Position numbers and translations under genes: made by a program. The notes under the pieces were generated by a model. It saw nothing but the letters and a program-made list of their open reading frames with translations, searched no databases and was not told the origin of the DNA. 64,000 nucleotides of DNA from contig JBMHDW010000002.1 in assembly GCA_049889175.1 (NCBI GenBank), positions 115,172 to 179,171 on the forward strand, written 5' to 3'. Shown one piece after another: positions 11,037 through 37,033 of the stretch. The stretch's first letter is position 1; each line of letters starts with the position of its first letter. Origin of the DNA: Candidatus Comchoanobacterales bacterium. GTDB lineage: Bacteria > Pseudomonadota > Gammaproteobacteria > Comchoanobacterales > Comchoanobacteraceae.

Positions 11037-11080
11037 GTTTTAGGATTGCAAATAGCCATTTGTTGTGTTAGCATTTGATC

Positions 11081-21497: not shown

Positions 21498-21880
21498 GGG
21501 GGCGTACTTGGGTTCGACGTTGTTGATGAGTTCAAAGGTGCATGTCGAGTATGTCTTTTATCTCGTTAATCTAAAAGACAAAAAAACATAGTTGCCAAGA
21601 AAGACGTAAAAGTTGCCAACGGTAAACTAACACGTTTTGTAGCTAAAGCTGCATAATGTGCCATTCTGCTGATGTGTGCTTGTGCGCGCAGTTAGAATGG
21701 TCATTTGACACAAGCTAGCTTGACGTCTCGTCTAGCGGCTGATGGCGAAGTTCTTTATAGACTCGCAAGAAACTGGGCTGACTGCTGCCTGGTGACTTGT
21801 TAAATGCCTAAAGCAGATCTAAGCATGTAGATCCGATGAATAGTTAATGATGGACGCGGGTTCAAATCCCGCCGCCTCCA
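21498..21880 (+). ncRNA. ssrA: tmRNA (SsrA)
   Basis: 5' GGGGGCGTACTTGGGTTCGACG pairs with the 3' end. T-arm GGACGCGGGTTCAAATCCCGC, then acceptor strand CGCCTCC plus discriminator A, with G3:U70. Internal tag ORF begins after ...AAAAAACAUAGUU: GCC AAG AAA ... GCT GCA TAA (21594-21656). Confidence 0.92.
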
Positions 21881-21946: not shown

Positions 21947-22888
21947 ATGATAAAGCATAATAATTCACCTGAAGTTATACCCAATAATGTTGACCAAAAT
22001 GATGTTTTATACCATCAGAAAAAACTAAAGATTCAATCTTTTTTTAATCATAAAGAACAACAAAACAAAAAAAGTCATTTATCGCATCCGTGTTTAGAGA
22101 AATATCAAAGGCCAAATTGGTATCAAAGTAATGAAAATATAAGAGATTTGATCAAACTAGCAAATCAACTCCTAGTGGACTTTGAAGGTGAAAGAATTTA
22201 TGGTTTAGGGCAAAGCCCGGCTTGGATTATTAAAGCTTTAGAATTATTGATAGATAAAAGAGGAGGTTCGAAATCAATTGGTTATATACCTTTCTCTGGT
22301 CGGTTTATGGAGAAAGAAATTAAACGACCTTTTGATAATAATTTTTTTAAAACATTTTGCCATGTCAAAAAAGGCCCATGTTTTCCCAATAATCAAGCAA
22401 TAAATAATTATAGACATGTCCTCGACCAACTTGGCATGGATCCTATTAGCATTATTCAAGCATTTAAGGATAAGCATCAGAAGACAGTATTATTGGAATA
22501 TATTCAAAGTGCAGAGTCACTAGCGTCGTTTATGATTATTTTATACGAATGGGCAATAGAATTAGATAAGTTAGAGCAATTGAAAGAATGCTTCGTTGTT
22601 TGTGCTTTAGCTCAAGATTTTAATAAACTACAGCTTATTTATTTGCCTAAAGTATCATTATATATGAGAAGAATACAAGTCAAGGATACTTTAATCATTC
22701 CACTGGCTAATGGAAAAGATACGGGTCCACAATCAGATAGACTGGTTCCTAAATATTCAGCACAAGATTGGTGTAATCCTATGCATGAAATGATTAATCA
22801 TGATTTTATTAAAGGGTTGGTAGAGAAAGTAAAATGTGAAGTAGACCGCTTTGCTGTTGATGATATTGTTGCAAAAAAACAATCATGA
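21947..22888 (+). CDS. Orphan protein (313 aa); candidate effector
   Basis: ORF with RBS aaaggga immediately downstream of ssrA. No recognisable domain. Confidence 0.55.
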   Translation: MIKHNNSPEVIPNNVDQNDVLYHQKKLKIQSFFNHKEQQNKKSHLSHPCLEKYQRPNWYQSNENIRDLIKLANQLLVDFEGERIYGLGQSPAWIIKALELLIDKRGGSKSIGYIPFSGRFMEKEIKRPFDNNFFKTFCHVKKGPCFPNNQAINNYRHVLDQLGMDPISIIQAFKDKHQKTVLLEYIQSAESLASFMIILYEWAIELDKLEQLKECFVVCALAQDFNKLQLIYLPKVSLYMRRIQVKDTLIIPLANGKDTGPQSDRLVPKYSAQDWCNPMHEMINHDFIKGLVEKVKCEVDRFAVDDIVAKKQS

Positions 22889-24118
22889 CCACAGAGCCCA
22901 AAATTGCTGTTGGTATTGAGCTTGGATGACAAATAGATTAAGCCCAAAAGAGCCAGAGGTATGATAATTAACATCATAAATGACGCCAGATAGATGATCC
23001 AATGAAACACTTCTTGGTAGGGTATTAATAATACAATCAAAGTTATTTAATGAGTTTGAATGTGGTATGCCCATAAGCAATTGTTTTTGAGTGATACCAT
23101 CTTCTCGATGATAGTTAAAAAAACAAGTATGGTTGTGTTTTAATTGATGAGCTAAGAGTTGAGCCATAGAGCCAGCACCTAAAATAAGAATGCGTTGGCG
23201 AGGCCAGTCTTGAGTCAACTCATTGAGTGCAGATTGATCAGTATTGGTCCCAAGCCATTGTTGACCATCAAAGGCTAATGTATTGATAGGTCCTTGATGA
23301 TTACACCATGACGCCACTGTTTGTTTATGAGGTGATGTAATACTTAATTGATGGATTCCCAATATTTCCAATAATGGTTTGAGTTGAGCTACATATTCTG
23401 ACGATACCTCAAGTGTAATGTAAATAGCATCTTGTTGTGTTAAGCGATGATGCAAGCCATGCCAAAATGGGCCCAAACTATGATGAGCAGGATTGCCAAG
23501 TAATGCTCTTATTCTAGTATTTGTTGATATTGGGTTAAGATATCGATCTTGCAGTAATAATTGTGATGAATGTAGGCTCTGATGCCAGCCTAAATAGTCA
23601 AATGCCCCCCATTTGGGTCCTAGGATGCGTAAACTACGACCATGACAACCTGTGCCTAGAATAGTGACTTGTGAATGTTGTTTGATATAAAGCATCATGT
23701 TAAGTGCTTGATATGCACTTTGTATGGGCAATACTATTTTAACATGATCCGCCAACGGTTGTAATTGTTTCACCCAGTCGTCAATATTGTTAATGGATTC
23801 TGTGGTATGTAAGGAGCGAATGACTTTTAAGTTGGGATATTGCTGTTTGATCATTTGAACCCATGCCAGCGGAACATCATGTTCACAGTCTATCCAATCA
23901 GGCTGTATTTTTTGAATTAAATCAACAAAATATTTCAAACGCGATGGTGAAGAGGGTTCATGATGACGATATGTCAATATCGACTGACAATGTTGAAGTT
24001 GGTGCCATTGTTGAATATCATCCAGTGACTTATTGATTAAATCCATACGAAGTTCATAAGCATTAATGTCTTTAGGAAGAGGTATTTGCGGTAAATGATC
24101 AAGACAAAGAATACGCAT
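22883..24118 (-). CDS. aroDE: Bifunctional 3-dehydroquinate dehydratase (type I) / shikimate 5-dehydrogenase fusion
   Basis: The N-terminal half is AroD-like (YELRMDL, VKIVLP..., ILGTGCHGRSLRILGPKWGA). The C-terminal half is AroE-like (LLGNPAHHSLGP, SITSPHKQ, GPINTL...GTNTD, ILILGAGSMA). Confidence 0.82.
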   Translation of the reverse strand: MRILCLDHLPQIPLPKDINAYELRMDLINKSLDDIQQWHQLQHCQSILTYRHHEPSSPSRLKYFVDLIQKIQPDWIDCEHDVPLAWVQMIKQQYPNLKVIRSLHTTESINNIDDWVKQLQPLADHVKIVLPIQSAYQALNMMLYIKQHSQVTILGTGCHGRSLRILGPKWGAFDYLGWHQSLHSSQLLLQDRYLNPISTNTRIRALLGNPAHHSLGPFWHGLHHRLTQQDAIYITLEVSSEYVAQLKPLLEILGIHQLSITSPHKQTVASWCNHQGPINTLAFDGQQWLGTNTDQSALNELTQDWPRQRILILGAGSMAQLLAHQLKHNHTCFFNYHREDGITQKQLLMGIPHSNSLNNFDCIINTLPRSVSLDHLSGVIYDVNYHTSGSFGLNLFVIQAQYQQQFWALWS

Positions 24119-25151
24119 GATTTTTGATCCAATGATGAATAAAGTGTTTGCTTTGTGAGATACTTAATGAGTGAAGAAATGGTTGGCCAAAATCATGAAG
24201 TAATACCCAGGTTAAAGTTGAGCTTTGTCTCTTTTTATCATTCATACATGCGTTAATTAATAAATCTGAGCACATATTTGAAGGTGGTTTAATATTTAAA
24301 CGTTGCCATGCTTGTGTGATGGCATGCACATGTTCTTGTGGGAAGTTAAATAGTTCAGCAGAAACATGTGCGATAAAATGAAGTCCTAGTGCTACACCAA
24401 CACCGTGGGGGACGTGATAGATACTTTCAATGGCATGACCTAATGTATGACCTAAATTAAGCATTTGTCGCCGGTTATGATCATAAGGATCTGCTCTTAC
24501 AAATGATTGCTTAATTTCGAGCTGCTGTTTTATATTATCAGCGTTATGATAGTTTAAGAATGTCTCAATGGGGTCATGGTTATTCAATAAATGCAAGCTG
24601 TATTTTTCATCAGTGAGGAAAAAATGTTTATAGCACTCAATGATGCCATTACGTTTTTCAACCCAAGGAAGTGTTTGAAGAGTTTCCATCACGATTAGGG
24701 TATATTTGGGATTTGAGAAAACACCGAGTGCATTTTTAACGTCACATGCATTAATAGCTGTTTTACCACCCAATGATGCATCAACCATGGCCAAAAGCGA
24801 TGTTGGGCAGTATAGACAATCAATACCTCTTAAATACGTTGCGGCGGTAAAGCCAACAAGATCTAAAATCATGCCACCACCACAAGCGATGATTAAGTCA
24901 TGACGGCATAAGCCCAGTCGTAGCCATTGATCTTCAAGCCATGCTTTGGTGTGTCTAGATTTGCTGGTTTCACCGGCAGGGATAACAATGGTAGCTTCAG
25001 TCGTTAAGATACTCAGTTTGATGGCAATATGTTGTGTATGATGATCACATATAATAATGCTTCGAGGGTATTGTTGAATGAGATATGGCTGAGCTAAATC
25101 ATTAAAAGATCCGATGATATGTACAGTTGAGGGCAGTGAATTATCCAGCAT
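24099..25151 (-). CDS. aroB: 3-dehydroquinate synthase
   Basis: GGGMILDLVGFTAATYLRGI, GGKTAIN and LNLGHTLGHAIE motifs. Overlaps the aroDE start. Confidence 0.9.
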   Translation of the reverse strand: MLDNSLPSTVHIIGSFNDLAQPYLIQQYPRSIIICDHHTQHIAIKLSILTTEATIVIPAGETSKSRHTKAWLEDQWLRLGLCRHDLIIACGGGMILDLVGFTAATYLRGIDCLYCPTSLLAMVDASLGGKTAINACDVKNALGVFSNPKYTLIVMETLQTLPWVEKRNGIIECYKHFFLTDEKYSLHLLNNHDPIETFLNYHNADNIKQQLEIKQSFVRADPYDHNRRQMLNLGHTLGHAIESIYHVPHGVGVALGLHFIAHVSAELFNFPQEHVHAITQAWQRLNIKPPSNMCSDLLINACMNDKKRQSSTLTWVLLHDFGQPFLHSLSISQSKHFIHHWIKNHAYSLS

Positions 25152-25264
25152 ATATTGATGATGGCTATTTTTATGTCAATTTGCAAATGTGTTTCAAAAA
25201 ACAATGCTATTTGTGATATCTAAATCAAATTAATAAAAATAAATCGTGTTTTTTTTCATATATG

Positions 25265-25270
25265 TACTAT
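25265..25270 (+). promoter_or_regulatory. Putative -10 element (TACTAT within TGTACTATA) upstream of A1
   Basis: The block aaatcgtgttttttt...tgtactata recurs upstream of both family-C genes (31176, 32231), at the same roughly 30-nt distance from the ATG. Confidence 0.3.
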
Positions 25271-25300
25271 ACGTTTCATAATTAACTTTGAGGAAATAAA

Positions 25301-26119
25301 ATGGGTAAACAAATGATCATTAGATTAAGTGCGTTAATCGTAGTTATATTAATAGGTGCCGCAGGGTGGTTTTTTCTTCTAGCTGGACCTTATCAAACGG
25401 ATAATATGAAGAAAGTTGATAAGCAGTTCGATGTAGTGCATGATATTTATTATCAACTAGGTGATGGAGACTCTAAGGATCAATTCGGTTCTGTTAATAA
25501 CGGTATTCTGAGTCTTAAGCACATGTACAATCTTCAGTTTGATTGGGATGAGATCAAGCCTTTTGAGCAGAAGTTTAAAGAACGAGATGAACATATTCGT
25601 TCAATTAAAGCAAAGCAAAAAGAGCTTAAAGCCGATGGTGTAAGTGATGATAAGAAAACTCAGTTAAATAATGATATTGCAGATCTAACAAAGAAGGTAG
25701 ATCAAGTATCAAATGATTATCAAACTGCCATAGTAGGTATTGAGAGTATTGACTTGGATGATATTGACAAAGACACTTTGGGTTTGGGTTATTGTGTTTT
25801 AATATCATCATATGCGCCAATAATTTCAGTTAATCTAATAGATACTGATCAAAACGATCTTATTCAGGGTCAAAAATCTAATGCTTCCGATATACGATTG
25901 AAGGATTTAAAATATATTTAAGATGATAAAACAATAGGCGTTGACAAGATGACTGGTAAGCAATATATATCTTTATTAGATGACTGTTATACAGGTATTC
26001 AAAATTGGTATGAACTTTTTACTAAGAATAAAGGTGTGGATCCTAAAGGTGACACTTTTGATTTGAATCTATCGGATGATCAAATTCAATCATTAAAAGA
26101 TGCCATCAAAGATGAGTGA
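25301..26119 (+). pseudogene. Family-A array gene A1, interrupted by one in-frame TAA at 25919-25921
   Basis: N-terminal TM anchor (LSALIVVILIGAAGWFFLLAG) and family-A blocks (VNNGILSLKHMYNLQF..IKPFEQKFKERDEHIRSIKAKQKELK...). After the TAA the same frame continues into ...GVDKMTGKQYISLLDDC...DLNLSDDQIQSLKDAIKDE. Confidence 0.75.
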
Positions 26120-26198
26120 TGATCATGAATAAAGATATGCCCGAATACATTCGGGCATATTTTTATCACACACATTCGTTTTTATGGTCTATAAGAAA
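26117..26198 (+). promoter_or_regulatory. 82-nt intergenic cassette copy 1: intrinsic terminator hairpin (26137-26158 plus T-tract) followed by CACACA-N17-TATAAG putative promoter
   Basis: Perfect palindrome ATGCCCGAAT-AC-ATTCGGGCAT followed by ATTTTTAT, then CACACA (26167) N17 TATAAG (26190-26195). The A2 ATG lies 30 nt downstream. Near-identical copies occur at 26976 and 27782. Confidence 0.6.
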
Positions 26199-26225
26199 GA
26201 GATATTTTAATTAAGGGGTATTGAT

Positions 26226-26978
26226 ATGGATATGGGGTTTTTTGCAGTAATAATGAGTGTTTTGGGGGAGTTATATTTAACCGATGCCATGAAGGAAAAG
26301 AAAAGACAGCTTGACGTGGTAAATAATATTTATTATGAGGTTGATGAGAAGTACCAAGTAGCATTTGGAACAGTAAATAATGGTATTACGAGTCTTAAGC
26401 ACGCTTACGACCTCCAGTTCAACCTAGATGATATCAAACCTTTTGAAAAGAAGTTTAAAGAAAGAGATGAGCATCTTCGTTCAATTAAAGCAAAACAAAA
26501 AGAGCTCAAAGCCGAAGGCGTTAGTGATGACAAGAAAAGTCAGTTGAATGCTGATATTGCAGACCTTACAAAAAAGGTGAATAAAATATCGAAAGACTAT
26601 GAGACTGCAATACAAGGCATTGAAACAATTGCCCTAAGCGATGATGATAAAGGTCGTGATGGTATAGGTTATTGTATTGAGGTCATTGCTGCAAGCAGTA
26701 TGATGGGTGCTCCTGATGACTCCGGTACACTAGACGCTATGAGTGTTCTTGGTTTGACAGGTGATCTTAAATATGATGACGATAAAGGCAAGATTGGTGT
26801 TTGTACGATAACAGGTAAGCAATATGTATCATTATTTGATAGTTGTTTTTCCGCGATTGACATTGTATATGCTGGTTTAATCAAGGGTAAAGGCTTCTCT
26901 GCTGATTCAGAGGTAATTGATTTAAATCTATCGGATGATCAAATTCAATCATTAAAAGATTCCATCAAAGATGAGTGA
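26226..26978 (+). CDS. Family-A array gene A2 (250 aa)
   Basis: RBS aagggg. Contains all family-A blocks and the tail DLNLSDDQIQSLKDSIKDE. Near-identical to A3 at nucleotide level apart from a linker indel. Confidence 0.75.
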   Translation: MDMGFFAVIMSVLGELYLTDAMKEKKRQLDVVNNIYYEVDEKYQVAFGTVNNGITSLKHAYDLQFNLDDIKPFEKKFKERDEHLRSIKAKQKELKAEGVSDDKKSQLNADIADLTKKVNKISKDYETAIQGIETIALSDDDKGRDGIGYCIEVIAASSMMGAPDDSGTLDAMSVLGLTGDLKYDDDKGKIGVCTITGKQYVSLFDSCFSAIDIVYAGLIKGKGFSADSEVIDLNLSDDQIQSLKDSIKDE

Positions 26979-27057
26979 TGATCATGAATAAAGATATGCC
27001 CGAATACATTCGGGCATATTTTTATCACACACATTCGTTTTTATGGTCTATAAGAAA
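26976..27057 (+). promoter_or_regulatory. 82-nt terminator-plus-promoter cassette copy 2
   Basis: Hairpin at 26996-27017, CACACA at 27026, TATAAG at 27049-27054. The A3 ATG lies 28 nt downstream. Confidence 0.6.
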
Positions 27058-27082
27058 TTATAATATAAATTAAGGAGAAAAA

Positions 27083-27784
27083 ATGGAGATAGTTATAAAT
27101 ATATTAGCATTATTTACTGTTTATCAAACGGATCAAATGAAAGAAAAGGAAAGACAGCTTGACGTGGTATATGATATTTACAATGCGGTTGATGAGAAGT
27201 ACCAAACATCATTTGAAACAGTAAATAATGGTATTTTGAGTCTTAAGCACGCTTACGACCTCCAGTTCAACCTAGATGATATCAAACCTTTTGAAAAGAA
27301 GTTTAAAGAAAGAGACGAGCATCTTCGTTCAATTAAAGCAAAACAAAAAGAGCTAAAAGCCGAAGGCGTTAGTGATGATAAGAAAACTCAGTTAAATAAT
27401 GATATTGCAGATCTAACAAAAAAGGTGAATAAAATATCGAAAGACTATGAGACAGCAATACAAGGCATTGAAAGCATAGCCCTAAGCGATGATGATAAAG
27501 GTAGTGATGGTATAGGTTATTGTATTGAGGTCATTGCTGCAAGCAGTATGATGGGTGCTCCTGATGAATTCAGTACAGTAAGTGACGCTATGAGTGTTCT
27601 TGGTGTTGATACGATAACAGGTAAGCAATATGTATCATTATTTGATAGTTGTTTTTCCGCGATTGACACTCTATATGCTGGTTTAATCAAGAATAAAGGC
27701 TTCTCTGCTGATCAAGAGGTAATTGATTTAAATCTATCGGATGATCAAATTCAATCATTAAAAGATGCCATCAAAGATGAGTGA
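27083..27784 (+). CDS. Family-A array gene A3 (233 aa)
   Basis: RBS aaggag. Family-A blocks and tail DLNLSDDQIQSLKDAIKDE. Confidence 0.78.
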   Translation: MEIVINILALFTVYQTDQMKEKERQLDVVYDIYNAVDEKYQTSFETVNNGILSLKHAYDLQFNLDDIKPFEKKFKERDEHLRSIKAKQKELKAEGVSDDKKTQLNNDIADLTKKVNKISKDYETAIQGIESIALSDDDKGSDGIGYCIEVIAASSMMGAPDEFSTVSDAMSVLGVDTITGKQYVSLFDSCFSAIDTLYAGLIKNKGFSADQEVIDLNLSDDQIQSLKDAIKDE

Positions 27785-27863
27785 TGATCATGAATAAAGA
27801 TATGCCCGAATACATTCGGGCATATTTTTATCACACACATTCGTTTTTATGGTCTATAAGAAA
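27782..27863 (+). promoter_or_regulatory. 82-nt terminator-plus-promoter cassette copy 3 (precedes B1)
   Basis: Hairpin at 27802-27823 and TATAAG at 27855-27860. The B1 ATG lies 25 nt downstream. Confidence 0.6.
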
Positions 27864-27885
27864 GAAATATACTAATAAGGATTGT

Positions 27886-28488
27886 ATGATTAAACACATA
27901 TTAATGTTATTTTTCAGTGCTGTAACAATGCAGGCTGGATTTGCAGAACAAGAAGGTGAATGTACTAAAGTTTTATCAACAGATCTAGATAGTCGTATCA
28001 TTTATTGGGAAGATACGTTGGGTGAAGATCATGATACCAACGTTGATTCTTTCAAAGATATACATCATGGTCTCAAAAGTTTTAAATTCTTGATCAGTCT
28101 TGAAGATCCATTATGTATCAATAAAAAAGACTCAAAGGGTATGATTGGTTTAGATTATAATGATAGATATCAAGTAGCAGGGTGTATGAATATTATCAAA
28201 AAAGCCTATGATATTGCTGTAAACAACAATCTTGAATATTTACAAAGTTTGAGAAGGCATCATGACGAAATTAGGGTGATGATCAATTACGATGAAAATA
28301 CTAGACAAATGAAGGCTAGCTCAATACCTGTTGATGAAATGAGACGGTTAAAAGATTTTTGTGAGATTTCTATACAGCTACATTACTGTCAGCTGTTAAA
28401 ATCAAAAGACCAAAGTGATGACCAAAAAAAAGAAATGAAGAAAACATATCCCAACATTGAGTTTATTTGTAAGGATTATCAAAGTTAA
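27886..28488 (+). CDS. Family-B array gene B1: secreted six-Cys protein (about 200 aa)
   Basis: The start was reset to MIKHILMLFFSAVTMQAGFA (Sec-type signal peptide, RBS aagga). The six Cys are conserved with B2 (AGCMNIIKKAYDIA, FCEISIQLHYCQLL, FICKDY). Confidence 0.7.
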   Translation: MIKHILMLFFSAVTMQAGFAEQEGECTKVLSTDLDSRIIYWEDTLGEDHDTNVDSFKDIHHGLKSFKFLISLEDPLCINKKDSKGMIGLDYNDRYQVAGCMNIIKKAYDIAVNNNLEYLQSLRRHHDEIRVMINYDENTRQMKASSIPVDEMRRLKDFCEISIQLHYCQLLKSKDQSDDQKKEMKKTYPNIEFICKDYQS

Positions 28489-28577
28489 TCCAGAAGAGTG
28501 CAAGCATCCTCTTGGTTGTATTTAACTATATTAATGAGTAATAGTAATCCTAAATATATAATAAATAAAAATAAAAA

Positions 28578-28609
28578 CACACAAATGGTCTTTTTTGGTC
28601 TATAAGAAA
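28578..28609 (+). promoter_or_regulatory. Diverged copy of the CACACA-N17-TATAAGAAA putative promoter upstream of A4
   Basis: cacacaaatggtcttttttggtctataagaaa. The A4 ATG lies 29 nt downstream of TATAAG. Confidence 0.45.
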
Positions 28610-28635
28610 TAATAATATAAATTAAGGAGAAAAAA

Positions 28636-29412
28636 ATGGAAGATATCATTATAGCAGGTTTATTGGGATTGTGGATAACCTATTTTTTTTATGAAACATT
28701 TATGTTTTATGTTAATTTTTATGAAACAGATGAATGGGCGAAAAAGGAAAGTCAGGTTGCTGAAATAGTAAAAATTTCTGATCTAAATGATGATGCAACT
28801 TTTACAATAAATAGTCTTGAGGCTGCTGCTCATAACTTTTCTATTCTTGAAGCTGGGAAGTTTAAATTTGATAAGGCAAGTAATATTAGCAACATTCTTA
28901 AAAAAAGAGATGAACATCTTAGAGTGATTAATGCTAAGGAAAAAGAATTAAAGCTTGATAATATTAGTGATGATACTAAAAGTCAGTTAAATAATGATAT
29001 TGAAAGGCTTACAGGTCAAGTTGATGCGTTAACTAATGAATTTTTCACCATAGTAGAAGGTAGTCATGAAATGTCTGTATCTGATTGGAGTTTAGTAATG
29101 GTTCAAACGTGTTTGTATCCCTTGATTTGGGGAAAGAATGATGATACTAAGCATTCAAAATTGATTGAACCTGAAGAAATTAAGAGATTGGCAAGTGAAC
29201 TTGAATTATCTCCTGAGGGATTTATAGGAGTCGATGAGATAACAGGCAAGCAATATTTATTGTTATACAATAGTTGTTCTGCTAGCGTTGACTACTTATA
29301 TGATGGCATTTTGAACAACAAAGGATTTTCAGCTACAGATCAAAGTAGGATCGATTTAAACCTATCTGATGAGACAATTCAGCGATTTAAAGATGCCGTT
29401 AAAGATGAGTGA
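28636..29412 (+). CDS. Family-A array gene A4 (258 aa, diverged)
   Basis: RBS aaggag. TM anchor IIIAGLLGLWITYFFY. Blocks KKRDEHLRVINAKEKELK...QLNNDIERLT and ...ITGKQYLLLYNSC...NKGFS...DLNLSDETIQRFKDAVKDE. Confidence 0.75.
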   Translation: MEDIIIAGLLGLWITYFFYETFMFYVNFYETDEWAKKESQVAEIVKISDLNDDATFTINSLEAAAHNFSILEAGKFKFDKASNISNILKKRDEHLRVINAKEKELKLDNISDDTKSQLNNDIERLTGQVDALTNEFFTIVEGSHEMSVSDWSLVMVQTCLYPLIWGKNDDTKHSKLIEPEEIKRLASELELSPEGFIGVDEITGKQYLLLYNSCSASVDYLYDGILNNKGFSATDQSRIDLNLSDETIQRFKDAVKDE

Positions 29413-29441
29413 TTATGATCTTAAAAAAGGGTTATTTTTTT

Positions 29442-29473
29442 CACACAAAGTATCTTTTTTGGTCTATAAGAAA
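29442..29473 (+). promoter_or_regulatory. Diverged copy of the CACACA-N17-TATAAGAAA putative promoter upstream of B2
   Basis: cacacaaagtatcttttttggtctataagaaa. The B2 ATG lies 26 nt downstream. Confidence 0.45.
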
Positions 29474-29496
29474 AAGTAATGTTAATGAAGGAGTTT

Positions 29497-30132
29497 ATGA
29501 TGAGAAAATTATCAATGATTATGCTGGGATCTCTAGCGATGCATACAGGTTTTGCAGATGAAAGCTGCAATTTAGATGAAAGCTTCATTTTAGATGAAAA
29601 TGACATAACAAAACATCATGACAATAGATATGAAGTTATGGAGAAAATTTATGAAGAGATCTCACTAGATGAAGTCAAGAATGATCTTATATATATCCTG
29701 ACTGGCCATGTTAGTTTAAAATATATTATCGGTTTTGCTGAAGTTAATTGTTTAAAAGAAGATGAAGCAGACAAAATAGTCCACATATCAGATTTAGATG
29801 ACTATGGAAGGAGTTCATTAGGCTTTGCTGGCTGTATCCACATGATGAGTATGGCTCATGACATTGCCAGTGAAAAAGGATATAGATTTGTAGATGATGC
29901 AAAAAAAGTTTTTGAAGATCATAGTGAAAGTTTTGATTATCAGGAAAACATACAAATAAATGCTGACCAAGTCACAGTTAGCCAGGTAAGTAGTATTATA
30001 GAACGTTGTGCCTATTCTTTGGTGGTTAATTATTGTCATTTATTAGAAAATAAAAATTTAAGTGATGGTCATAAAAATAGTCTTAAGGAGGCACATCCTG
30101 GTATAGACAGTCTTTGTCAAAAAATGAAATAA
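29497..30132 (+). CDS. Family-B array gene B2: secreted six-Cys protein
   Basis: RBS gaaggag. Signal peptide MMRKLSMIMLGSLAMHTGFA. Cys pattern is collinear with B1 (AGCIHMMSMAHDIA, RCAYSLVVNYCHLL, SLCQKM). Confidence 0.7.
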   Translation: MMRKLSMIMLGSLAMHTGFADESCNLDESFILDENDITKHHDNRYEVMEKIYEEISLDEVKNDLIYILTGHVSLKYIIGFAEVNCLKEDEADKIVHISDLDDYGRSSLGFAGCIHMMSMAHDIASEKGYRFVDDAKKVFEDHSESFDYQENIQINADQVTVSQVSSIIERCAYSLVVNYCHLLENKNLSDGHKNSLKEAHPGIDSLCQKMK

Positions 30133-30162
30133 ACCCAATGACTCATTGAGACAAAAACAAAT

Positions 30163-30187
30163 GCCCCGATTAAACGGGGCTTTTGTT
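30163..30187 (+). terminator. Intrinsic terminator after B2
   Basis: GCCCCG-ATTAAA-CGGGGC followed by TTTTGTT. Confidence 0.7.
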
Positions 30188-30226
30188 GGATCAATAGTTT
30201 ATTAAATCACAATGTTGGAGCGTTAA

Positions 30227-31144
30227 ATGACTGATACAATGAAACTAATCAACCTACTGATAGTAGCAACTATCATTTTTGTAGGGATTTGGTACTTTTA
30301 TCCCGATCATGAAGAACGTGACCAGCCATCAAAAGATGATCAGAGTGACATACAAGATAATAAAACTCACTTTGAAAAGGTATTAGAGCGTCAGTTTGAT
30401 GCATTGGTTGATTTAAAAACAACGGATCAAAATACCAGCAATAATGTCAACGCACTGGTGTTGGGTTTGATGAATATCCAGCATATGAATCAACGTCAAT
30501 TTGAACTAGAAGATATTAAGCCCTTTAGAAAAGCATTTATTGAACAAGATGGTGATGAATTAACGTTAAAAGATAAAATCAATAAGCTTGATCACAACAA
30601 CTTAAAACCAAAAGAAAAAGATCAGCTAAATCAAGATATCGAATCGTTAACTCAAAAAATAAACCAGGTTAATCAGGATTATCTTTCAGCATTTAAAGCT
30701 ATTAAAGAGATTCAGTTAACAGAGGAAGATAAATCAGCCATGGGAATGGAACAGTGTATCTTATTGCCAGGATGGGCAGTCATATTGGAAAATGGTAATC
30801 AACTGAGTGATTCATCAAAAAAGATAAAAGATCTTAATAGCAATAATATAACGATTAATGACATCAGTTCAGTTTTAGAAGCGACAAATATTTTTAATCA
30901 TGTTAAGCATCACATATCTGAAAAGAATGACCTTAAAACAAAGCTAATGGGCGATGGTTCTTCAATAATTGTCGAGACTATTTCTGGAGAAGACTATATC
31001 ACAATCTATACATCATGTATTCAAGCAGCAGACATCATGTATCAATCATTGCTAAACAATAAAGGCATTGGAAAAGGAGTATTTCCTGTGGATTTATCTT
31101 TAACATCAGAGCAAATCGAGCAATTAAAGAGTGCAGTTAAATGA
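30227..31144 (+). CDS. Family-A array gene A5 (305 aa, most diverged, longest linker)
   Basis: TM anchor LINLLIVATIIFVGIWYF. Blocks IKPFRKAF...QLNQDIESLTQKINQVNQDY and ...ISGEDYITIYTSC...NNKGIG...DLSLTSEQIEQLKSAVK. Confidence 0.72.
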   Translation: MTDTMKLINLLIVATIIFVGIWYFYPDHEERDQPSKDDQSDIQDNKTHFEKVLERQFDALVDLKTTDQNTSNNVNALVLGLMNIQHMNQRQFELEDIKPFRKAFIEQDGDELTLKDKINKLDHNNLKPKEKDQLNQDIESLTQKINQVNQDYLSAFKAIKEIQLTEEDKSAMGMEQCILLPGWAVILENGNQLSDSSKKIKDLNSNNITINDISSVLEATNIFNHVKHHISEKNDLKTKLMGDGSSIIVETISGEDYITIYTSCIQAADIMYQSLLNNKGIGKGVFPVDLSLTSEQIEQLKSAVK

Positions 31145-31175
31145 TTTAAAAAATCATGTTTTTTATAATAATTTG

Positions 31176-31181
31176 TACTAT
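31176..31181 (+). promoter_or_regulatory. Putative -10 (TACTAT) upstream of C1
   Basis: Conserved aaaaaatcatgtttttta...tttgtactata block, shared with the C2 and A1 upstream regions. Confidence 0.3.
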
Positions 31182-31210
31182 ATAGAAGATACAAATAACA
31201 GAGGTAAATT

Positions 31211-32020
31211 ATGGTAGCAAAAAAAGATACTCACAATGATTGTTGTCAACAGCATTGTTGTTCAATGATGAAAAGAGGACTAAAGATCGCAGTAGCAGGT
31301 TTATTGTTTGTTGGTATTGGACATGCAGATGATCATTTGTCTAATGAAAAATTGACTGTAACATCGATTATGAATCAAGAATTCAATTCATATATTTAAC
31401 CAATCAACGAGATTAAAAGAGTTGAGAAAGCAAAGGATAAGCCAAAAAAAGAATTACTGGATGCCATTGATCAGATTATTAATGCCAGTAAAGGAATACA
31501 AGATATTCAACATGCTCAATTAAGACACCCCCATGTAGTTCCTGTAGTTAATGAGTTTAATGACCTAATAAAACAAGGTGTTTTAGTGAATCATGTGATT
31601 CTTATTGTTGATGAGAAAGGAAAGGAAGAAACTGATAATAAGACGTCATTAGTAAAAAACTTAAAGGAAATAATTAATAAAAGCATGACATCGCAATGGC
31701 AATATCCTATTACATACAGTGATATACAAAAGTGTCTGGATATTGAAGTCCCAGATGATTTTAAAGTAGACGTTGATGGTAGTATGGTTGAGCTGACCGA
31801 TGAAGTTAAAAAGAAGTTGGCTGATAAGAGAGTTGCGTATTATAGAGATTGGAAAACAATCTTAAATAAAGGTGATGAATTAATGTTGGGAGGTTCTTTG
31901 GGATATATTGTAAATGAATGTAATAATAGAGGTCATGCATGGACAGTTTTCATTAACAGTGATGAAATGAAAGCTCATATGACTGATTATCAGAAAGAGT
32001 TATTGAAATCAGTAAAGTGA
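31211..32020 (+). pseudogene. Family-C array gene C1, interrupted by one in-frame TAA (31397-31399) and carrying a deletion in the TM region
   Basis: Collinear with C2. GAA in C2 (HIELINEIKR) is TAA here (YI*PINEIKR). ORFs 31211-31399 and 31586-32020 are in the same frame. The GWYGYNHWF segment of C2 is missing. Confidence 0.8.
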
Positions 32021-32070
32021 TTACTGCTCTTTAAGTTAAAATACCTAAAAAGGGGGGGTAAGTATTCCTG

Positions 32071-32193
32071 ATTCAAGCAGCAGACATCATGAATCAATTA
32101 TTTCTAAACAATAAAGGCATTGGAGAAGGAGTATTTCCTGTGGATTTATCTTTAAACATCAGATCAAGTCAAGCAATTAAAGAGTGCGGTTAA
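32071..32193 (+). pseudogene. Remnant of the A5 3' end created by the tandem duplication
   Basis: attcaagcagcagacatcatg...aataaaggcattgga...tttcctgtggatttatcttta... matches 31019-31144, with substitutions and a 1-nt indel. There is no start codon. Confidence 0.85.
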
Positions 32194-32230
32194 ATAATTT
32201 TAAAAAAATCATGTTTTTTATAATAATTTG

Positions 32231-32236
32231 TACTAT
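32231..32236 (+). promoter_or_regulatory. Putative -10 (TACTAT) upstream of C2
   Basis: Same conserved block as at 31176. Confidence 0.3.
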
Positions 32237-32265
32237 ATGGAAGATACAAATAACAGAGGTAAATT

Positions 32266-33093
32266 ATGGTAGCAAAAAAAGATATTCACAATGATTGTTG
32301 TCAACAGCATTGTTGTTGTCGTTCAATGATGAAGGGCGGGCTAAAGATTGCAGCAGTAGGTCTATTGGTTGTTGGTGTTGGATATGCAGGGTGGTATGGT
32401 TATAATCACTGGTTTAATGAAACATTGACTGTAACATCGATTATGGATCAACAAATCAATTCACATATTGAACTAATCAACGAGATTAAAAGAGTTGAGA
32501 AAGCAAAGGATAAGCCAAAAAAAGAATTACTGAATACAATTGATCAGATTATTAATGCCAGTAAAGGAATACAAGATATTCAACATGCTAAATTAAGACA
32601 CCCCCATGTAGTTCCTGTAGTTAATGAGGTTAACGACTTAATAAAACAAGGTGTTGTAGTGAATCATGAGATTCTTATTGTTGATGAGAAAGGAAAGGAA
32701 GAAACTGATAATAAGACGTCATTAGTGCACGCTTTAAATGATGGAATTAATAAAAGCATGACATCGCAATGGCAATATCCTATTACATACAGTGATATAC
32801 AAAAGTGTCTGGATATTGAAGCCCCAGATGATTTTAAAGTAGACGTTGATGGTAGTATGGTTGAGCTGACCGATGAAGTTAAAAAGAAGTTGGCTGATAA
32901 GAGAGTTGCGTATTATAGAGATTGGAAAACAATCTTAAATAAAGGTGATGAATTAATGTTAAGAGATTCTTTGGATAATATTCAAGAAGAATGTAATAAA
33001 AGAACGCATGCATGGATAGTTTTCATTAACAGTGATGAAATGAAAGCTCATATGACTGATTATCAGAAAGAGTTATTGAAATCAGTAAAGTGA
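32266..33093 (+). CDS. Family-C array gene C2 (275 aa): Cys-cluster N-terminus, single TM, extracytoplasmic domain
   Basis: RBS gaggt. MVAKKDIHNDCCQQHCCC followed by TM LKIAAVGLLVVGVGYAGWYGY. C-terminal tail MTDYQKELLKSVK. Confidence 0.72.
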   Translation: MVAKKDIHNDCCQQHCCCRSMMKGGLKIAAVGLLVVGVGYAGWYGYNHWFNETLTVTSIMDQQINSHIELINEIKRVEKAKDKPKKELLNTIDQIINASKGIQDIQHAKLRHPHVVPVVNEVNDLIKQGVVVNHEILIVDEKGKEETDNKTSLVHALNDGINKSMTSQWQYPITYSDIQKCLDIEAPDDFKVDVDGSMVELTDEVKKKLADKRVAYYRDWKTILNKGDELMLRDSLDNIQEECNKRTHAWIVFINSDEMKAHMTDYQKELLKSVK

Positions 33094-33124
33094 TTACTGC
33101 TCTTTAAGTTGAAATACCAAAAAA

Positions 33125-33150
33125 GGGAGGCGTTAAGCTTCCCTTTTTTT
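33125..33150 (+). terminator. Intrinsic terminator after C2
   Basis: GGGAGGC-GTTAA-GCTTCCC (one G:U pair) followed by TTTTTTT. Confidence 0.7.
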
Positions 33151-33193
33151 ATTGTTTAGATCACGTTATAATATCATTATTTTAAGGGTAACA

Positions 33194-34312
33194 ATGAATC
33201 AATTGGGTCAATACTGTACACTAACAACGTGGGGTGAGTCTCATGGCGATGCTATTGGTGGTGTTATTGATGGATTACCCTCAGGGCTTGTTATTAATAT
33301 GGACGTTATTCATGCGGATATGCAACGGCGACGGCCAGGGCAAAGAAAAGATGTTAGTGCCCGTAAAGAACCTGATCAGTTGACCATTCATTCAGGTGTT
33401 TATCTAGGCAAAACCACGGGTGCACCATTGTCTTTCAGTATTGTGAATCAAGATGTTAGATCACAAGATTATCCTCAAAAGCTCATTCGACCTGGTCATG
33501 CTGATGCAACTTATTTAGCTAAATATGGTCATTATGATCCTCGAGGTGGTGGTCGTTCTTCTGCACGTGAAACCGCTATACGCGTCGCTGCTGCCAGTAT
33601 GATCAAACAGCTGCTTAAACCGTTGGGCATCGATGTTTGGGCGTATTTATGTCAAGTTGGACCTTTTCATATGCCTGTTTTGCAGCAGCGCCCTGAAGAT
33701 GCTCAGGATGCGCTCATCAATGGATCATTTCCTTGCCCAGATCAAAAGCTATCTCAAGATATGCAAAATCATATTCAATCGCTTAAAGAGGCTGGTAATT
33801 CTTGTGGGGGCTGTGTGGGCTTTGTGATTTCAGGCTTGCCAAAAGGTTTGGGTGAGCCGGTTTATGATAAGTTTGAGGCTAGATTAGCGCAGTCAATGCT
33901 TTCGATTCCAGCCAGTAAAGGCTTTGATATCGGTCAGGGTTTTGGCGCTGCAGCTATGACAGGCTTAGCTCATAATGATTCGCCTAACGAGCATGATGGC
34001 TTTGATAGTAATGCTGCTGGTGGTTTGTTAGGTGGTATTACCAATGGTGATCCAGTGTATGGACGAGTAGCCTTTAAGCCCACATCAAGTATCAGATTGA
34101 GTCAAAAAACTATCGATTACGATGCCAAACCAACACAATTGGTTTTGCAAGGCCGTCATGATCCATGTGTGGCTGTTCGTGCAACAGTGGTGGTTGAGGC
34201 AATGTGTTGGTTAACTATTATTGATCTTTTACAGCCTTACTGGCAACAGCAATCCATGCAAAAGATGTTAGATCAACATTCAACAGCAGTCAGCCAAGAA
34301 GGATCGCTGTAA
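33194..34312 (+). CDS. aroC: Chorismate synthase
   Basis: TTWGESHG, RRRPGQ, GGGRSSARETA and GGLLGGITNG motifs. The start was set at MNQLGQY. The 3' end overlaps the convergent aroK 3' end by 40 nt. Confidence 0.92.
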   Translation: MNQLGQYCTLTTWGESHGDAIGGVIDGLPSGLVINMDVIHADMQRRRPGQRKDVSARKEPDQLTIHSGVYLGKTTGAPLSFSIVNQDVRSQDYPQKLIRPGHADATYLAKYGHYDPRGGGRSSARETAIRVAAASMIKQLLKPLGIDVWAYLCQVGPFHMPVLQQRPEDAQDALINGSFPCPDQKLSQDMQNHIQSLKEAGNSCGGCVGFVISGLPKGLGEPVYDKFEARLAQSMLSIPASKGFDIGQGFGAAAMTGLAHNDSPNEHDGFDSNAAGGLLGGITNGDPVYGRVAFKPTSSIRLSQKTIDYDAKPTQLVLQGRHDPCVAVRATVVVEAMCWLTIIDLLQPYWQQQSMQKMLDQHSTAVSQEGSL

Positions 34313-34725
34313 CGATGTGTGGCAATGGCCATGTATTGTTCATGTCGTTGTGCCCACCAAGATGACCAATCATGAGGATAGCGACCATGGTCTTGATGTA
34401 ATCGTTCGTGTGTCCAGGACATCGGTCGGTCAAGGTAAAGGCAAAAGCGACATGATTGCTTTATCCATTGTGCATTAGGTGTGAAGAGTGGTGTGCCGCC
34501 ACCGCAATCCAAAATGCCATCTTTTGATAGGTTATGTAGTTGAAGGTTTTCTAGCCACATAAAATAGTTATCACCATACTGGCGGATTATCTCTCTTGGT
34601 GACATTTCATATGTGTTATCAAGGTGAGTAACAGGGCGTTGTAAAGTTTTGCTGAGCTGTTGGCTTAGTGTGGTCTTTCCTGATCCTGGAAAGCCAATGA
34701 TGGCGATGTATACTGATTGATCCAT
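34273..34725 (-). CDS. aroK: Shikimate kinase
   Basis: P-loop IAIIGFPGSGKTTLSQQL, about 150 aa, located between aroA and aroC. Overlaps the aroA 3' end by 61 nt. Confidence 0.75.
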   Translation of the reverse strand: MDQSVYIAIIGFPGSGKTTLSQQLSKTLQRPVTHLDNTYEMSPREIIRQYGDNYFMWLENLQLHNLSKDGILDCGGGTPLFTPNAQWIKQSCRFCLYLDRPMSWTHERLHQDHGRYPHDWSSWWAQRHEQYMAIATHRYSDPSWLTAVEC

Positions 34726-35939
34726 GTGAATGTCTCTTTAAATTGTGGAAAGCTTTTATTAATGCAATGATCGTGACTTAACGGCTTTGCATCAGCGCAG
34801 ATTGAGTTAGCTAGATGTAACATCATTGCCATACGGTGATCTTGGTAATGATCTAATGATGCATGATGTAATGCTGATGGGTAAACAACCATTGTGTCAT
34901 CATGATAATCGATTGCAGCCCCCATTAAACCGAGTTGTTGTTGAATTACCTTTGGGCGATTACATTCTTTGGTTGTTGCAATACGGATGCCAGAGAACAT
35001 GCTGGGTCCTGTATCGGCTTGAGTGGCCATTAAGGCCATTAATGGTAATAAGTCAATGCTGTCATTCAAATCTGCTTGAATGGGGTCAATGATTTTTGGC
35101 GGGATGATGCTTATTTTTTGTGCATGTATTGTTATCTTAGCCCCCATTTGTTTCAAAAGCTTGATGATGGCAGTGTCGGGTTGTGACCATTGTGATAATC
35201 TATAGGGCATTGATAGGGCTTTTTGATGTAGTATTGACCACACTAACCAGTGCCCAATCAAGCCAATATCAATGGGTAAAGAGGTCTCAAAGCCATGGGT
35301 GTTGGTTTTGGGGGTGATGCGAATTGAATCCCAGTGATCTTGAACTATCTGATGGCCAAGAAAGCGTAGCCAGTCTATGGTCATTGAAATGAAAGGGCGC
35401 TCACCAGCGTGTTGCAGATTAATCGATGAAGGCGGTTGATTAGTTAGTGCAAGAACGCATAATAAAGCGCTTATCGGCTGGCTGTCTTCGCTATGAATGG
35501 TTATCGATGTGTTAGTTAAGGGCCCATGAATACTTAAAGGTGCAAAGCCTGGATGCTCTAAATACTGTATCTGTGCACCACAATCAATTAATGTATTGAC
35601 CAAAGTGGCCATAGGGCGTGTTTGGCATGATGCATCACCCGTTATGATGGTTTTGTGGGGTTGAGTGGCAGCTAGCGCACTAACAAATCTTAATAAAATA
35701 CCCGAGTTACCAGCATCTAGTTGGCTTTTAAATGGCCAGCCATTGGGCGTTACTGTTGCTGTATTGTGACTGATTTGAATCATCAATGGATCTTTAAGCA
35801 TTGAGATTAAGGTATAGACATCATCAGATAAGGTTACAGGTGTAATGTGACTTGGTGAGTCGCAAAATAGCGCCATTAAAAGAGCCCTCAATTGATGAGA
35901 TTTTGAGATGGGCATTAAGTAATGTGGTATTTGAATCAT
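34665..35939 (-). CDS. aroA: 3-phosphoshikimate 1-carboxyvinyltransferase (EPSP synthase)
   Basis: PISKSHQLRALLMA (compare LPGSKS..NR), DHRMAMM near the C-terminus, about 425 aa. Confidence 0.85.
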   Translation of the reverse strand: MIQIPHYLMPISKSHQLRALLMALFCDSPSHITPVTLSDDVYTLISMLKDPLMIQISHNTATVTPNGWPFKSQLDAGNSGILLRFVSALAATQPHKTIITGDASCQTRPMATLVNTLIDCGAQIQYLEHPGFAPLSIHGPLTNTSITIHSEDSQPISALLCVLALTNQPPSSINLQHAGERPFISMTIDWLRFLGHQIVQDHWDSIRITPKTNTHGFETSLPIDIGLIGHWLVWSILHQKALSMPYRLSQWSQPDTAIIKLLKQMGAKITIHAQKISIIPPKIIDPIQADLNDSIDLLPLMALMATQADTGPSMFSGIRIATTKECNRPKVIQQQLGLMGAAIDYHDDTMVVYPSALHHASLDHYQDHRMAMMLHLANSICADAKPLSHDHCINKSFPQFKETFTWINQYTSPSLAFQDQERPH

Positions 35940-36046
35940 GAAAGGCAGTCTAGCGATTATTATGCACTCATGCAAGTTACGTTGCTAAAGGTTTAAAAAC
36001 CATTCATCTTGAGTTAAACTGATTTTAAGATTAAATTAAGGATGTT

Positions 36047-36244
36047 TTGCTGGAAAAAGAGTTACTACAGTTGTTGGTTTGTCCTCAAACAGGAGGTCGT
36101 TTGCTGTGGTTCCCAGATCAGGCTGAGCTTGTTTCCTTAGCAGCACGTTGTGCCTATCCTGTGAAGCAAGGCGTGCCCATTTTGCTCAAAGAGCAAGCAA
36201 GACCAATTCATCAGGAGGAATATGAGTCAATTCAACGAAGATAA
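36047..36244 (+). CDS. Trm112/YcaR-family small protein (UPF0434)
   Basis: LLVCPQTGGRL...YPVKQGVPILLKEQAR is typical of the Trm112-like family. TTG start with RBS aagga. Confidence 0.75.
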   Translation: MLEKELLQLLVCPQTGGRLLWFPDQAELVSLAARCAYPVKQGVPILLKEQARPIHQEEYESIQRR

Positions 36245-36575
36245 AACCCTTTTTACGCGTATCATTGAACGTCATATCCCTGCGGATATTGTTTATGAAG
36301 ATGAATTATGCATTGCCATTAAAGATATTATGCCTCAAGCCCCTGTTCATGTTTTATTAATTCCCAAAAAAGTCATTCCTAAGTTAAATGAAATGATTGA
36401 TGAGGATGCAGCACTAATGGGGCATCTTATGACTCGTATTCCTCAAATAACCCGATCGCTCTCATTGAGTGACTACCGTGTAGTGATTAACCACGGCGCA
36501 TCAGCAGGTCAAACAGTATTTCATCTACATATTCATATTCTCGGCGGACGCGATTTCCAATGGCCTCCAGGTTAG
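36222..36575 (+). CDS. HIT-family (HinT-like) nucleotide hydrolase
   Basis: Histidine triad HLHIHILGG, and N-terminus LFTRIIERHIPADIVYEDE. Confidence 0.88.
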   Translation: MSQFNEDKTLFTRIIERHIPADIVYEDELCIAIKDIMPQAPVHVLLIPKKVIPKLNEMIDEDAALMGHLMTRIPQITRSLSLSDYRVVINHGASAGQTVFHLHIHILGGRDFQWPPG

Positions 36576-37033
36576 TAGCGACCTTCTTTAAGTGCTTTTC
36601 CCTGATCTCGTTTCCATTCGCGTTCTTTGATATCTTGCCTTTTATCACGCTGGTTTTTACCAACGCACAATGCGATGCTGAGCTTAGCGCGTTGTTTACG
36701 TAGATGAAGGGTAAGTGGAATAATAGTTGCTTTTTTGCGAGTGACTGCGCCAAGTAATGTGTCAATTTCTTTGCGATGAAGTAATAATTTTCGGCGTCGA
36801 TTAGGTTCAGGGTTAAGATAAGCGGGTATGGTTGCTAGTGGTGTGATTTGTGATTGCAGCAACCATGCTTCATTATTCACGATGGTGACATATGATTCAG
36901 CAAGCTGACCATGTTTTTGTCGTAAACTTTTAATTTCCCATCCTTCTAAAACAATGCCGCACTCAAAGGTCTCTAACCAGTGGTAGTTGAACTTGGCTTT
37001 CCTACGGTTGTCGATCAAAATGGTGTCACTCAT
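36572..37033 (-). CDS. smpB: SsrA-binding protein SmpB
   Basis: NRRKAKFNYHWLETFECGIVLEGWEIKSLR and a basic C-terminal tail. About 153 aa. Confidence 0.92.
   Translation of the reverse strand: MSDTILIDNRRKAKFNYHWLETFECGIVLEGWEIKSLRQKHGQLAESYVTIVNNEAWLLQSQITPLATIPAYLNPEPNRRRKLLLHRKEIDTLLGAVTRKKATIIPLTLHLRKQRAKLSIALCVGKNQRDKRQDIKEREWKRDQGKALKEGRY

Follow-up and report, generated by a model that had tools for sequence, protein, structure and literature searches.

A probably complete shikimate pathway of chlamydial type, encoded by a secondarily split operon, in a reduced gammaproteobacterium of the Comchoanobacterales

The shikimate genes of a Candidatus Comchoanobacterales bacterium raise the question of how a gammaproteobacterium came to encode a fused AroD-AroE enzyme in a gene cluster that resembles the aro operon of chlamydiae, and how this cluster was split by an array of orphan genes. 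The cluster lies in a stretch of 64,000 nucleotides (hereafter the window) on contig 2 of a 16-contig draft genome of 1.34 Mb and 91% completeness, referred to as G000; handles of the form G### and L### denote sampled genomes and loci, respectively. Comchoanobacterales corresponds to UBA7916 in GTDB, consists of a single family and stands among Coxiellales, Legionellales and their relatives (PMC9418006). Genomes of the family measure 0.7-1.9 Mb, its members bear titles such as 'Gammaproteobacteria bacterium', and RpoB places G000 within the class sample. Taken as a whole, the analysis makes it probable that this reduced gammaproteobacterium has a complete pathway from 3-deoxy-D-arabinoheptulosonate 7-phosphate (DAHP) to chorismate, that the pathway is of chlamydial type and that its operon was split secondarily.

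The minus strand of the window carries aroA-aroK and, after a gap, aroB-aroDE; the plus strand carries the orphan array and aroC between them. This arrangement, described in an earlier note on the sequence, is borne out by the list of open reading frames (ORFs) and by Pfam, and the convergent overlap of 40 nt between aroC and aroK that the note reported agrees with coordinates 34273-34312. The features of the locus are:

22883-24118, minus strand: aroDE, 411 aa, fused type I 3-dehydroquinate dehydratase / shikimate dehydrogenase (Pfam PF01487 and PF08501)
24099-25151, minus strand: aroB, 3-dehydroquinate synthase, 350 aa (PF01761 and PF24621)
25152-25300: AT-rich divergent spacer, 149 bp between aroB and the first array gene
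25301-33093, plus strand: array of nine lineage-specific ORFs without Pfam family
Starts at 25301, 26226, 27083, 28636 and 30227: array ORFs of family A
Starts at 27781 and 29479: array ORFs of family B
Starts at 31586 (truncated copy) and 32266: array ORFs of family C
33119-33149, plus strand: intrinsic-terminator-like hairpin closing the array, 13-bp stem and T run
33194-34312, plus strand: aroC, chorismate synthase, 372 aa from the probable ATG start (PF01264)
34273-34725, minus strand: aroK, shikimate kinase, 150 aa, shortened (PF01202)
34665-35975, minus strand: aroA, 5-enolpyruvylshikimate-3-phosphate (EPSP) synthase, 436 aa, of chlamydial type and at the head of the ancestral operon (PF00275)
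36222-37033: hit (plus strand) and smpB (minus strand), identified by Pfam, conserved right-hand neighbours that serve as an anchor of the locus in relatives

A genome-wide search found aroDE, aroB, aroK, aroC and aroA each as a single copy in the assembly. The 3' end of aroB extends 20 nt over the start of aroDE, the reading frames of aroA and aroK, as listed, overlap by 61 nt, and the tail-to-tail overlap of aroK and aroC involves the last 13 codons of aroK. The aroC frame as listed opens at TTG 33152 (33152-34312), a start that is probably not the real one, the TTG sitting in the T-tail of the terminator hairpin. The true start is probably ATG 33194, the position at which the AroC N-termini of relatives align; upstream of it stand a ribosome-binding site and, at 33167-33172, a perfect TATAAT. 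The GC content of the array (31-34%) is lower than that of its flanks (35-42%), and aroC, at 42%, is like aroK and aroA in this respect.

The AroDE product contains, in one ORF and with the dehydroquinase first, a DHquinase_I domain (residues 17-172; PF01487, 41.6 bits vs. a gathering threshold of 22.2) and a Shikimate_dh_N domain (residues 206-274; PF08501, 34.6 bits vs. 27). Because the same single ORF is also present in five relatives, the fusion is, on this comparison, real and not a reading artefact, in line with the earlier proposal of a single 411-aa AroD-AroE frame. Among NCBIfam models, AroDE scores highest with the bifunctional NF006802 (PRK09310), which spans both domains (residues 17-386) but yields 129.4 bits, short of its curated cut-off of 598; by this measure the protein is a distant relative of the model and not an equivalog. 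TIGR00507 likewise remains below its cut-off (67.6 vs. 200 bits). In type I dehydroquinases a histidine acts as general base and a lysine forms the Schiff base with the substrate. In the alignment with PDB 2GPT, the corresponding H104 and K127 of AroDE match the motifs SSHN and VKIA, and the dehydrogenase residues K265 of the PHK motif and D294 of the NTD motif align with 2GPT and with the bacterial shikimate dehydrogenase (SDH) PDB 3DON; all four are invariant in the family, and the nucleotide-binding loop G314-G316 (GxGG) is conserved.

The remaining enzymes show a similar picture of recognizable but partly divergent family members. AroC exceeds the cut-offs of both of its NCBIfam models (NF003793, 402.9 vs. 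321 bits; TIGR00033, 386.3 vs. 212 bits) and matches PF01264 with 392 bits, whereas AroB (TIGR01357, 272 bits) is under its cut-off of 305. AroA matches PF00275 with 196 bits (threshold 22.8) and TIGR01356 with 261 bits, below the cut-off of 287, and on these scores is a divergent member of the EPSP synthase family. AroK is recognized by PF01202 (56.1 bits vs. a threshold of 22.1) over profile positions 1-108 of 159. It retains the Walker A motif (GFPGSGKT) and the GGG motif, but its LID region and C-terminus are shortened, and it is without two internal segments and the C-terminal tail of other family members. The relative L096 has the same short form: AroK measures 150 aa here and 157 aa in L096, compared to 169 aa in G014 and G006. 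Judged by domains and motifs, the shikimate enzymes look intact. A class I-beta DAHP synthase is encoded elsewhere in the genome (TIGR01361, 306 bits, over the cut-off), as is a separate KdsA. Thus, with the five aro genes and the DAHP synthase, all seven steps to chorismate are encoded.

How the split arose can be read from relatives. The genes aroA-aroK-aroC-aroB are contiguous and co-oriented in four other genera of the family (G014, G006/G326, G010/G327 and the metagenome-assembled genome (MAG) L016). The aroDE gene follows aroB directly in G014, G006 and L016, the three in which it was located, and in G326, G327 and G010 the arrangement is the same through aroB. In G014 and G006, the two with annotated flanks (those of L016 were not annotated), the operon adjoins hit/smpB as in the window. 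As the intact co-oriented operon occurs in other genera, the split state is derived, and the comparison of loci shows a five-gene operon aroA-aroK-aroC-aroB-aroDE with overlapping neighbours beside hit/smpB in the reconstructed ancestor of the family.

A closer relative, L096, was found via the protein database and shares 59% identity in AroDE, 65% in AroC and 82% in SmpB. Its lineage is represented by two independent ENA assemblies (L096/L097), one of which is a 1.5-Mb contig. The layout is smpB-hit-trm112-aroA-aroK, an inverted aroC, three unannotated genes co-oriented with aroC, and aroB-aroDE; the hit/smpB neighbours are hence retained, and aroK and aroC overlap by 46 nt. G000 and L096 are sisters, with G014 as the next branch, in the AroA (support 98), AroC and concatenated (support 99) trees. 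Both carry both changes, inversion and insertion, and comparison with G014 shows both the inversion and the first insertion to lie, as judged from these sequences, on the branch after G014 split off. Because the inversion and three orphan genes are already present in L096 at 59% AroDE identity, the rearrangement is old and predates G000. No inverted repeats were found at the inversion junctions, only the palindromic terminators of the array, as expected for an old event. The proposal of an insertion plus inversion inside a once contiguous operon is thereby supported, both by the co-oriented operons of relatives without the array and by an AroC phylogeny that indicates inversion in place. The same split in the absence of an array, which would have argued against a link between the two changes, was not found among the relatives: L096, the single one with the split, has orphan genes at that very place.

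The nine array ORFs form three paralogous families, A, B and C, according to blastp. None of them has a Pfam family, and no further copies of these families were found elsewhere in the G000 genome. One of the three orphan genes of L096 is homologous to family C (blastp 2e-16; hhalign 97.7%, E = 2e-12) and occupies the same spot; the other two bear a weak resemblance to families A and B. Successive array genes are followed by terminator-like palindromic hairpins of 38 nt, three of which are identical (26129-26166, 26988-27025 and 27794-27831). Such identical hairpins after successive genes indicate that tandem duplication took in the terminators, and the comparison shows that the block, at first of about three genes, was later enlarged in G000 by tandem duplication to nine ORFs and about 8 kb.

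Two other arrangements were seen in the family. In L282 (G322) and L285 (G011), aroA lies on the strand opposite to aroC-aroB and no aroK stands between them, which constitutes a second, independent break of the operon; with 40% identity to its chlamydial counterpart in L099, AroA of G011/G322 exceeds other family members. Locus L015 (G001:C5:52001-72000) has the order aroC, class I DAHP synthase, a pabB-like gene on the opposite strand, aroB and a 515-aa AroDE, with aroC 5 kb from aroB. No aroA was seen in the L015 stretch, and the G001 genome is much more GC-rich than the window. Aro proteins within the family share only 26-50% identity and are thus fast-evolving. The AroDE alignment of the family is too divergent to yield search patterns, and a database homologue search with AroDE of G000 returned the protein itself and one relative only.

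The counterpart of this operon is found in the Chlamydiota, where 97 of the 100 genomes sampled across the phylum encode a fused AroDE. The Chlamydiae MAG GCA_002773835.1 (L099) has aroA-aroK-aroC-aroB-aroDE in one direction. The gene order of the small-genome chlamydial loci L145-L147 is identical, as is that of L148, in which aroK was not detected. Many environmental chlamydiae have aroB-aroA-aroK-aroC with a divergent aroDE. The operon corresponds to CT366-CT370 in Chlamydia trachomatis. A contiguous chlamydial cluster with the fused enzyme, as stated in the earlier note, is therefore confirmed for L099 and L145-L147. Its companion statement, that Proteobacteria normally have AroD and AroE as separate genes, is correct as a rule, since a full-length fused AroDE was present in 8 of 201 sampled gammaproteobacterial families (about 4%), the source family included.

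The chlamydial operon and that of the source family share the same five genes and a fused AroDE with an N-terminal dehydroquinase, and the chlamydial gene order and overlapping gene ends are those of the unrearranged members of the family. In contrast, aroC is inverted in the window, with 8 kb of unrelated genes between it and aroB, so that the five genes are no longer contiguous, and the host is a gammaproteobacterium. The proteins are 27-45% identical to the chlamydial ones (tblastn), and AroDE is about 50-70 residues shorter. The plant dehydroquinase-SDH enzyme (Arabidopsis, PDB 2GPT/2O7Q/2O7S, 6BMB) has the same domain order, the alignment with it crosses the domain junction, and the dehydroquinase His/Lys and the dehydrogenase Lys are conserved. 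The similarity is nevertheless weak (E = 2.6e-9), and the plant protein is about 100 residues longer, plastid-targeted and without operon context. Typical gammaproteobacteria perform the same enzymatic steps as the source genome, but from an E. coli-like layout of scattered aroA, aroK-aroB and aroC, separate aroD and aroE, and class I-alpha DAHP synthases, and their AroA and AroC belong to a different clade.

Five of the seven other fusion-bearing gammaproteobacterial families have the same five-gene operon. The operons in G307, G152, G219, G221 and G297 share both operon and fusion with the source family but are intact, and their proteins are much nearer to the chlamydial ones (AroA 37-44%, AroC 53-57% identity, tblastn). 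AroDE of the other families reaches 241-310 bits with NF006802. Three more gammaproteobacterial genomes have aroA-(aroK)-aroC-aroB clusters with no fusion nearby. In an RpoB tree, one clan (support 91) unites all cluster-bearing gammaproteobacterial families with the source family and excludes most typical gammaproteobacteria; G023, with typical scattered aro genes, lies inside this clan as sister of the cluster-bearing G221. The cluster-bearing families are probably neighbouring host-associated orders. Database relatives of AroDE from G307 that carry a name are Simkania, Simkaniaceae, Rhabdochlamydiaceae and Chlamydiota, together with two MAGs labelled 'Gammaproteobacteria bacterium' and 'Legionella sp.'.

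Two unusual AroDE loci came up in this survey. In L141 (G086:C1:1077001-1096000, at about 9293-11971), chlamydial AroDE and AroA share one 939-aa frame, which would be a three-activity fusion; no aroB was found near this frame. In G147, a 3.3-Mb gammaproteobacterial genome, the frame of the fused AroDE is interrupted by TGA and no AroA, AroB or AroC was detectable, and its rpoB was matched only in two pieces, with 25 stop codons in all. An unusual genetic code, pseudogenes or a faulty assembly may lie behind these features of G147.

The origin of the operon is best traced through AroA and AroC. When an AroA profile of the family was run against 5.8 billion proteins, the family came first, followed by a tier of 316-382 bits whose named members are only Chlamydiae, Chlamydiales, Parachlamydiales and Parachlamydia; after a gap, the rest scored 232 bits or less. 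In an AroA tree that includes Firmicutes, Elusimicrobia and others, a branch of length 1.36 (support 100) joins the family with Chlamydiota, and an approximately unbiased (AU) test on this tree rejects a grouping of the family with typical gammaproteobacteria (p = 0.019). A mixture-model tree of AroC contains a split (support 99) between the family, Chlamydiota and the cluster-bearing gammaproteobacteria on one side and typical gammaproteobacteria, Nitrospirota, Bacteroidota and an Akkermansia MAG on the other. A scan with the AroC alignment retrieved mostly Bacteroidota at 43-50% identity, and of the loci retrieved only one (L016) contained the cluster. Raw AroC identity, highest to Bacteroidota, is thus misleading, given that the tree puts AroC with Chlamydiota. 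In the concatenated AroA+AroB+AroC tree, the cluster-bearing G307, G152, G297, G221 and G145 nest within environmental Chlamydiota (support 96).

The AroC tree also showed displaced sequences (L026 and L051). AroC of 'Glaciecola amylolytica THG-3.7', a complete gammaproteobacterial chromosome, is near-identical to that of a Fluviicola MAG (Bacteroidota) and lies inside Flavobacteriales, as does AroC of the Akkermansia MAG. Their placement points to recent transfer, mislabelling or contamination.

Several observations pull away from a chlamydia-related origin. The trees of AroB and of the SDH domain separate the family from typical gammaproteobacteria but offer no further resolution. The family's Aro proteins, with their fast evolution, are nested inside Chlamydiota in no tree, and the concatenated tree without further phyla is a three-way star in which a grouping of the family with typical gammaproteobacteria is not rejected (p = 0.114, p = 0.77). 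Trees of three clans cannot tell which clan is nearer to the family, and AU tests on them are uninformative. Moreover, sampling of the trees is thin beyond Gammaproteobacteria and Chlamydiota, and many of the top 145 AroDE matches across the database are far from any labelled sequence. Lateral acquisition, as suspected in the earlier note, is supported by the shared fusion, the gene order, the AroA profile search and the AroA and AroC trees, both of which place the family away from typical gammaproteobacteria, with the qualification that the family is not nested in Chlamydiota and that AroB and the SDH domain do no more than separate it from typical gammaproteobacteria. In the best interpretation, the operon has a lateral origin related to chlamydiae, through one or more events in either direction.

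Against this reading, the fused aroDE and its operon could be ancestral to the Legionellales-like gammaproteobacteria, with Chlamydiota as recipients, or both groups could have inherited an older arrangement. Such a vertical origin would suit the single RpoB clan of cluster-bearing and source families, the deep branch that the source family forms outside the Chlamydiota clade, and the three-group trees, on which the AU test does not reject the family together with typical gammaproteobacteria. It is hard to reconcile with the distribution of the fusion, which 97% of Chlamydiota and about 4% of gammaproteobacterial families possess, with the nesting of the other cluster-bearing gammaproteobacteria in environmental Chlamydiota, with the scattered genes of G023 beside its sister G221 and with the AU test on the AroA tree with extra phyla, and we regard it as unlikely. 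Somewhat more plausible, though still less than an even prospect, is that two or more acquisitions took place and the operon of the source family stems from a transfer separate from that of the other cluster-bearing families. A single clade of the source family and the other cluster-bearing gammaproteobacteria is weakly disfavoured (AU p = 0.039), and the AroA tree sets the family beside a small-genome Chlamydiaceae-like branch and the other gammaproteobacteria among environmental chlamydiae. However, this p value is marginal, the long branches of the family make its placement unreliable, and the host lineages are related, so that a single old gain followed by rate acceleration is equally simple.

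The rearrangement itself could have been mimicked in two ways. The original aroC might have been lost and replaced by a foreign copy arriving with the orphan genes on the opposite strand, as in both G000 and L096 aroC points the same way as the array and follows directly downstream. AroC of G000 and L096, however, groups with the family as sister to G014, as AroA and AroB do, which argues for an inversion of the resident aroC and against its replacement; in addition, its GC content is that of aroK and aroA and not of the array, and a terminator stands between the array and aroC. Replacement is therefore very improbable. An even smaller chance attaches to a mis-join in a metagenome-assembled genome: the source is a draft of 16 contigs at 91% completeness, but a diverged relative has the same layout in two assemblies that are independent of each other, in one of them on the 1.5-Mb contig, and the frames of aroC and aroK overlap across the junction in both genomes.

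On the preferred reading, the operon type was probably exchanged between Chlamydiota and a group of related gammaproteobacterial families before the source family diversified. The ancestor had one aroA-aroK-aroC-aroB-aroDE operon beside hit/smpB. On the branch to G000 and L096, aroC underwent inversion at its original site and a small lineage-specific block, oriented like aroC, appeared between aroB and aroC; in G000, this block was then enlarged by tandem duplication to the present nine ORFs.

The split predicts three transcription units. Genes aroA-aroK would be transcribed from a promoter upstream of 35975, and aroC alone, behind the terminator at 33119-33149, from its own -10 box. A new promoter in the 149-bp spacer, shared with the first array gene, would serve aroB-aroDE; the gene layout suggests that this spacer must hold the promoters of both. 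Only weak sigma-70-like matches were seen in the spacer (25152-25300), and consensus promoter matches in the region are no commoner than in shuffled sequence, a point that tells against these assignments. No clear terminator was found between the converging aroK and aroC, and their transcripts should therefore overlap in antisense. On the far side of the locus, a tmRNA gene lies at window positions 21498-21880, about 1 kb past the 3' end of aroDE; the tag predicted for it, AKKDVKVANGKLTRFVAKAA, is rich in lysine and longer than usual.

The likely use of the chorismate follows from the gene content of the source genome, which encodes one enzyme of the chorismate-binding family. Its best score is with PabB (275 bits), followed by TrpE (248 bits), both below their cut-offs; that the PabB assignment stays under the NCBIfam cut-off and TrpE is only slightly lower speaks against a firm assignment. 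The pabB-like gene, a pabA/trpG-like gene, def and fmt form a co-oriented run (G000:C1:297311-300732), the first two overlapping by about 40 nt. As the sole enzyme of this family is PabB/TrpE-like and has a PabA/TrpG partner, synthesis of p-aminobenzoate and folate is the likeliest role, and the pathway most likely feeds it; ubiquinone or aromatic amino acids may be additional products. Of the 31 genomes of the family, 9 encode AroC; they belong to 6 of its 18 genera, and the other 12 genera are without it. A chorismate-binding enzyme was found in all six aro-bearing family genomes tested and in neither of the two tested genomes without aro genes; the pathway and the tested chorismate-using enzyme appear to have been lost together. 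The chorismate-binding gene lies inside the aro cluster in G001 and a few kb away in G006, where folE stands beside aroA.

The fused AroDE and the operon were already known from chlamydiae, but no earlier report was found for this gammaproteobacterial family and its neighbours. Literature searches turned up no paper that describes such an operon in Comchoanobacterales or Legionellales, and the Comchoanobacter paper (PMC9418006) makes no mention of shikimate or chorismate. Inversion and insertion are ordinary genome rearrangements, which are unusually well documented here by relatives. The locus illustrates neatly how genes are transferred and an operon decays; the system is not of a new kind, and knowledge of the enzymes themselves is unchanged.

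As a tentative idea, one that we would not rate as probable, the operon may be a portable module with repeated transfers between Chlamydiota and several related, host-associated orders of Gammaproteobacteria that share eukaryotic hosts, Comchoanobacterales among them. In shrinking genomes, it would be either lost together with the PabB-type enzyme or broken up, and the aroK/aroC overlap (40-46 nt), kept across deep divergence, may couple the two halves of the pathway by antisense transcription.

The finding adds a whole metabolic operon to the genes shared by chlamydiae and Legionellales-like Gammaproteobacteria, and fits the idea of gene exchange among bacteria inside the same eukaryotic cells. 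It also provides a dated series of operon decay in a shrinking genome, from the intact state (G014, G006 and L016) through a flipped aroA in one genus (G011/G322), a flipped aroC with three genes (L096) and the nine ORFs described here to loss in 12 of 18 genera. That the aro genes and the single PabB-like enzyme are kept together suggests what these symbionts still make themselves.

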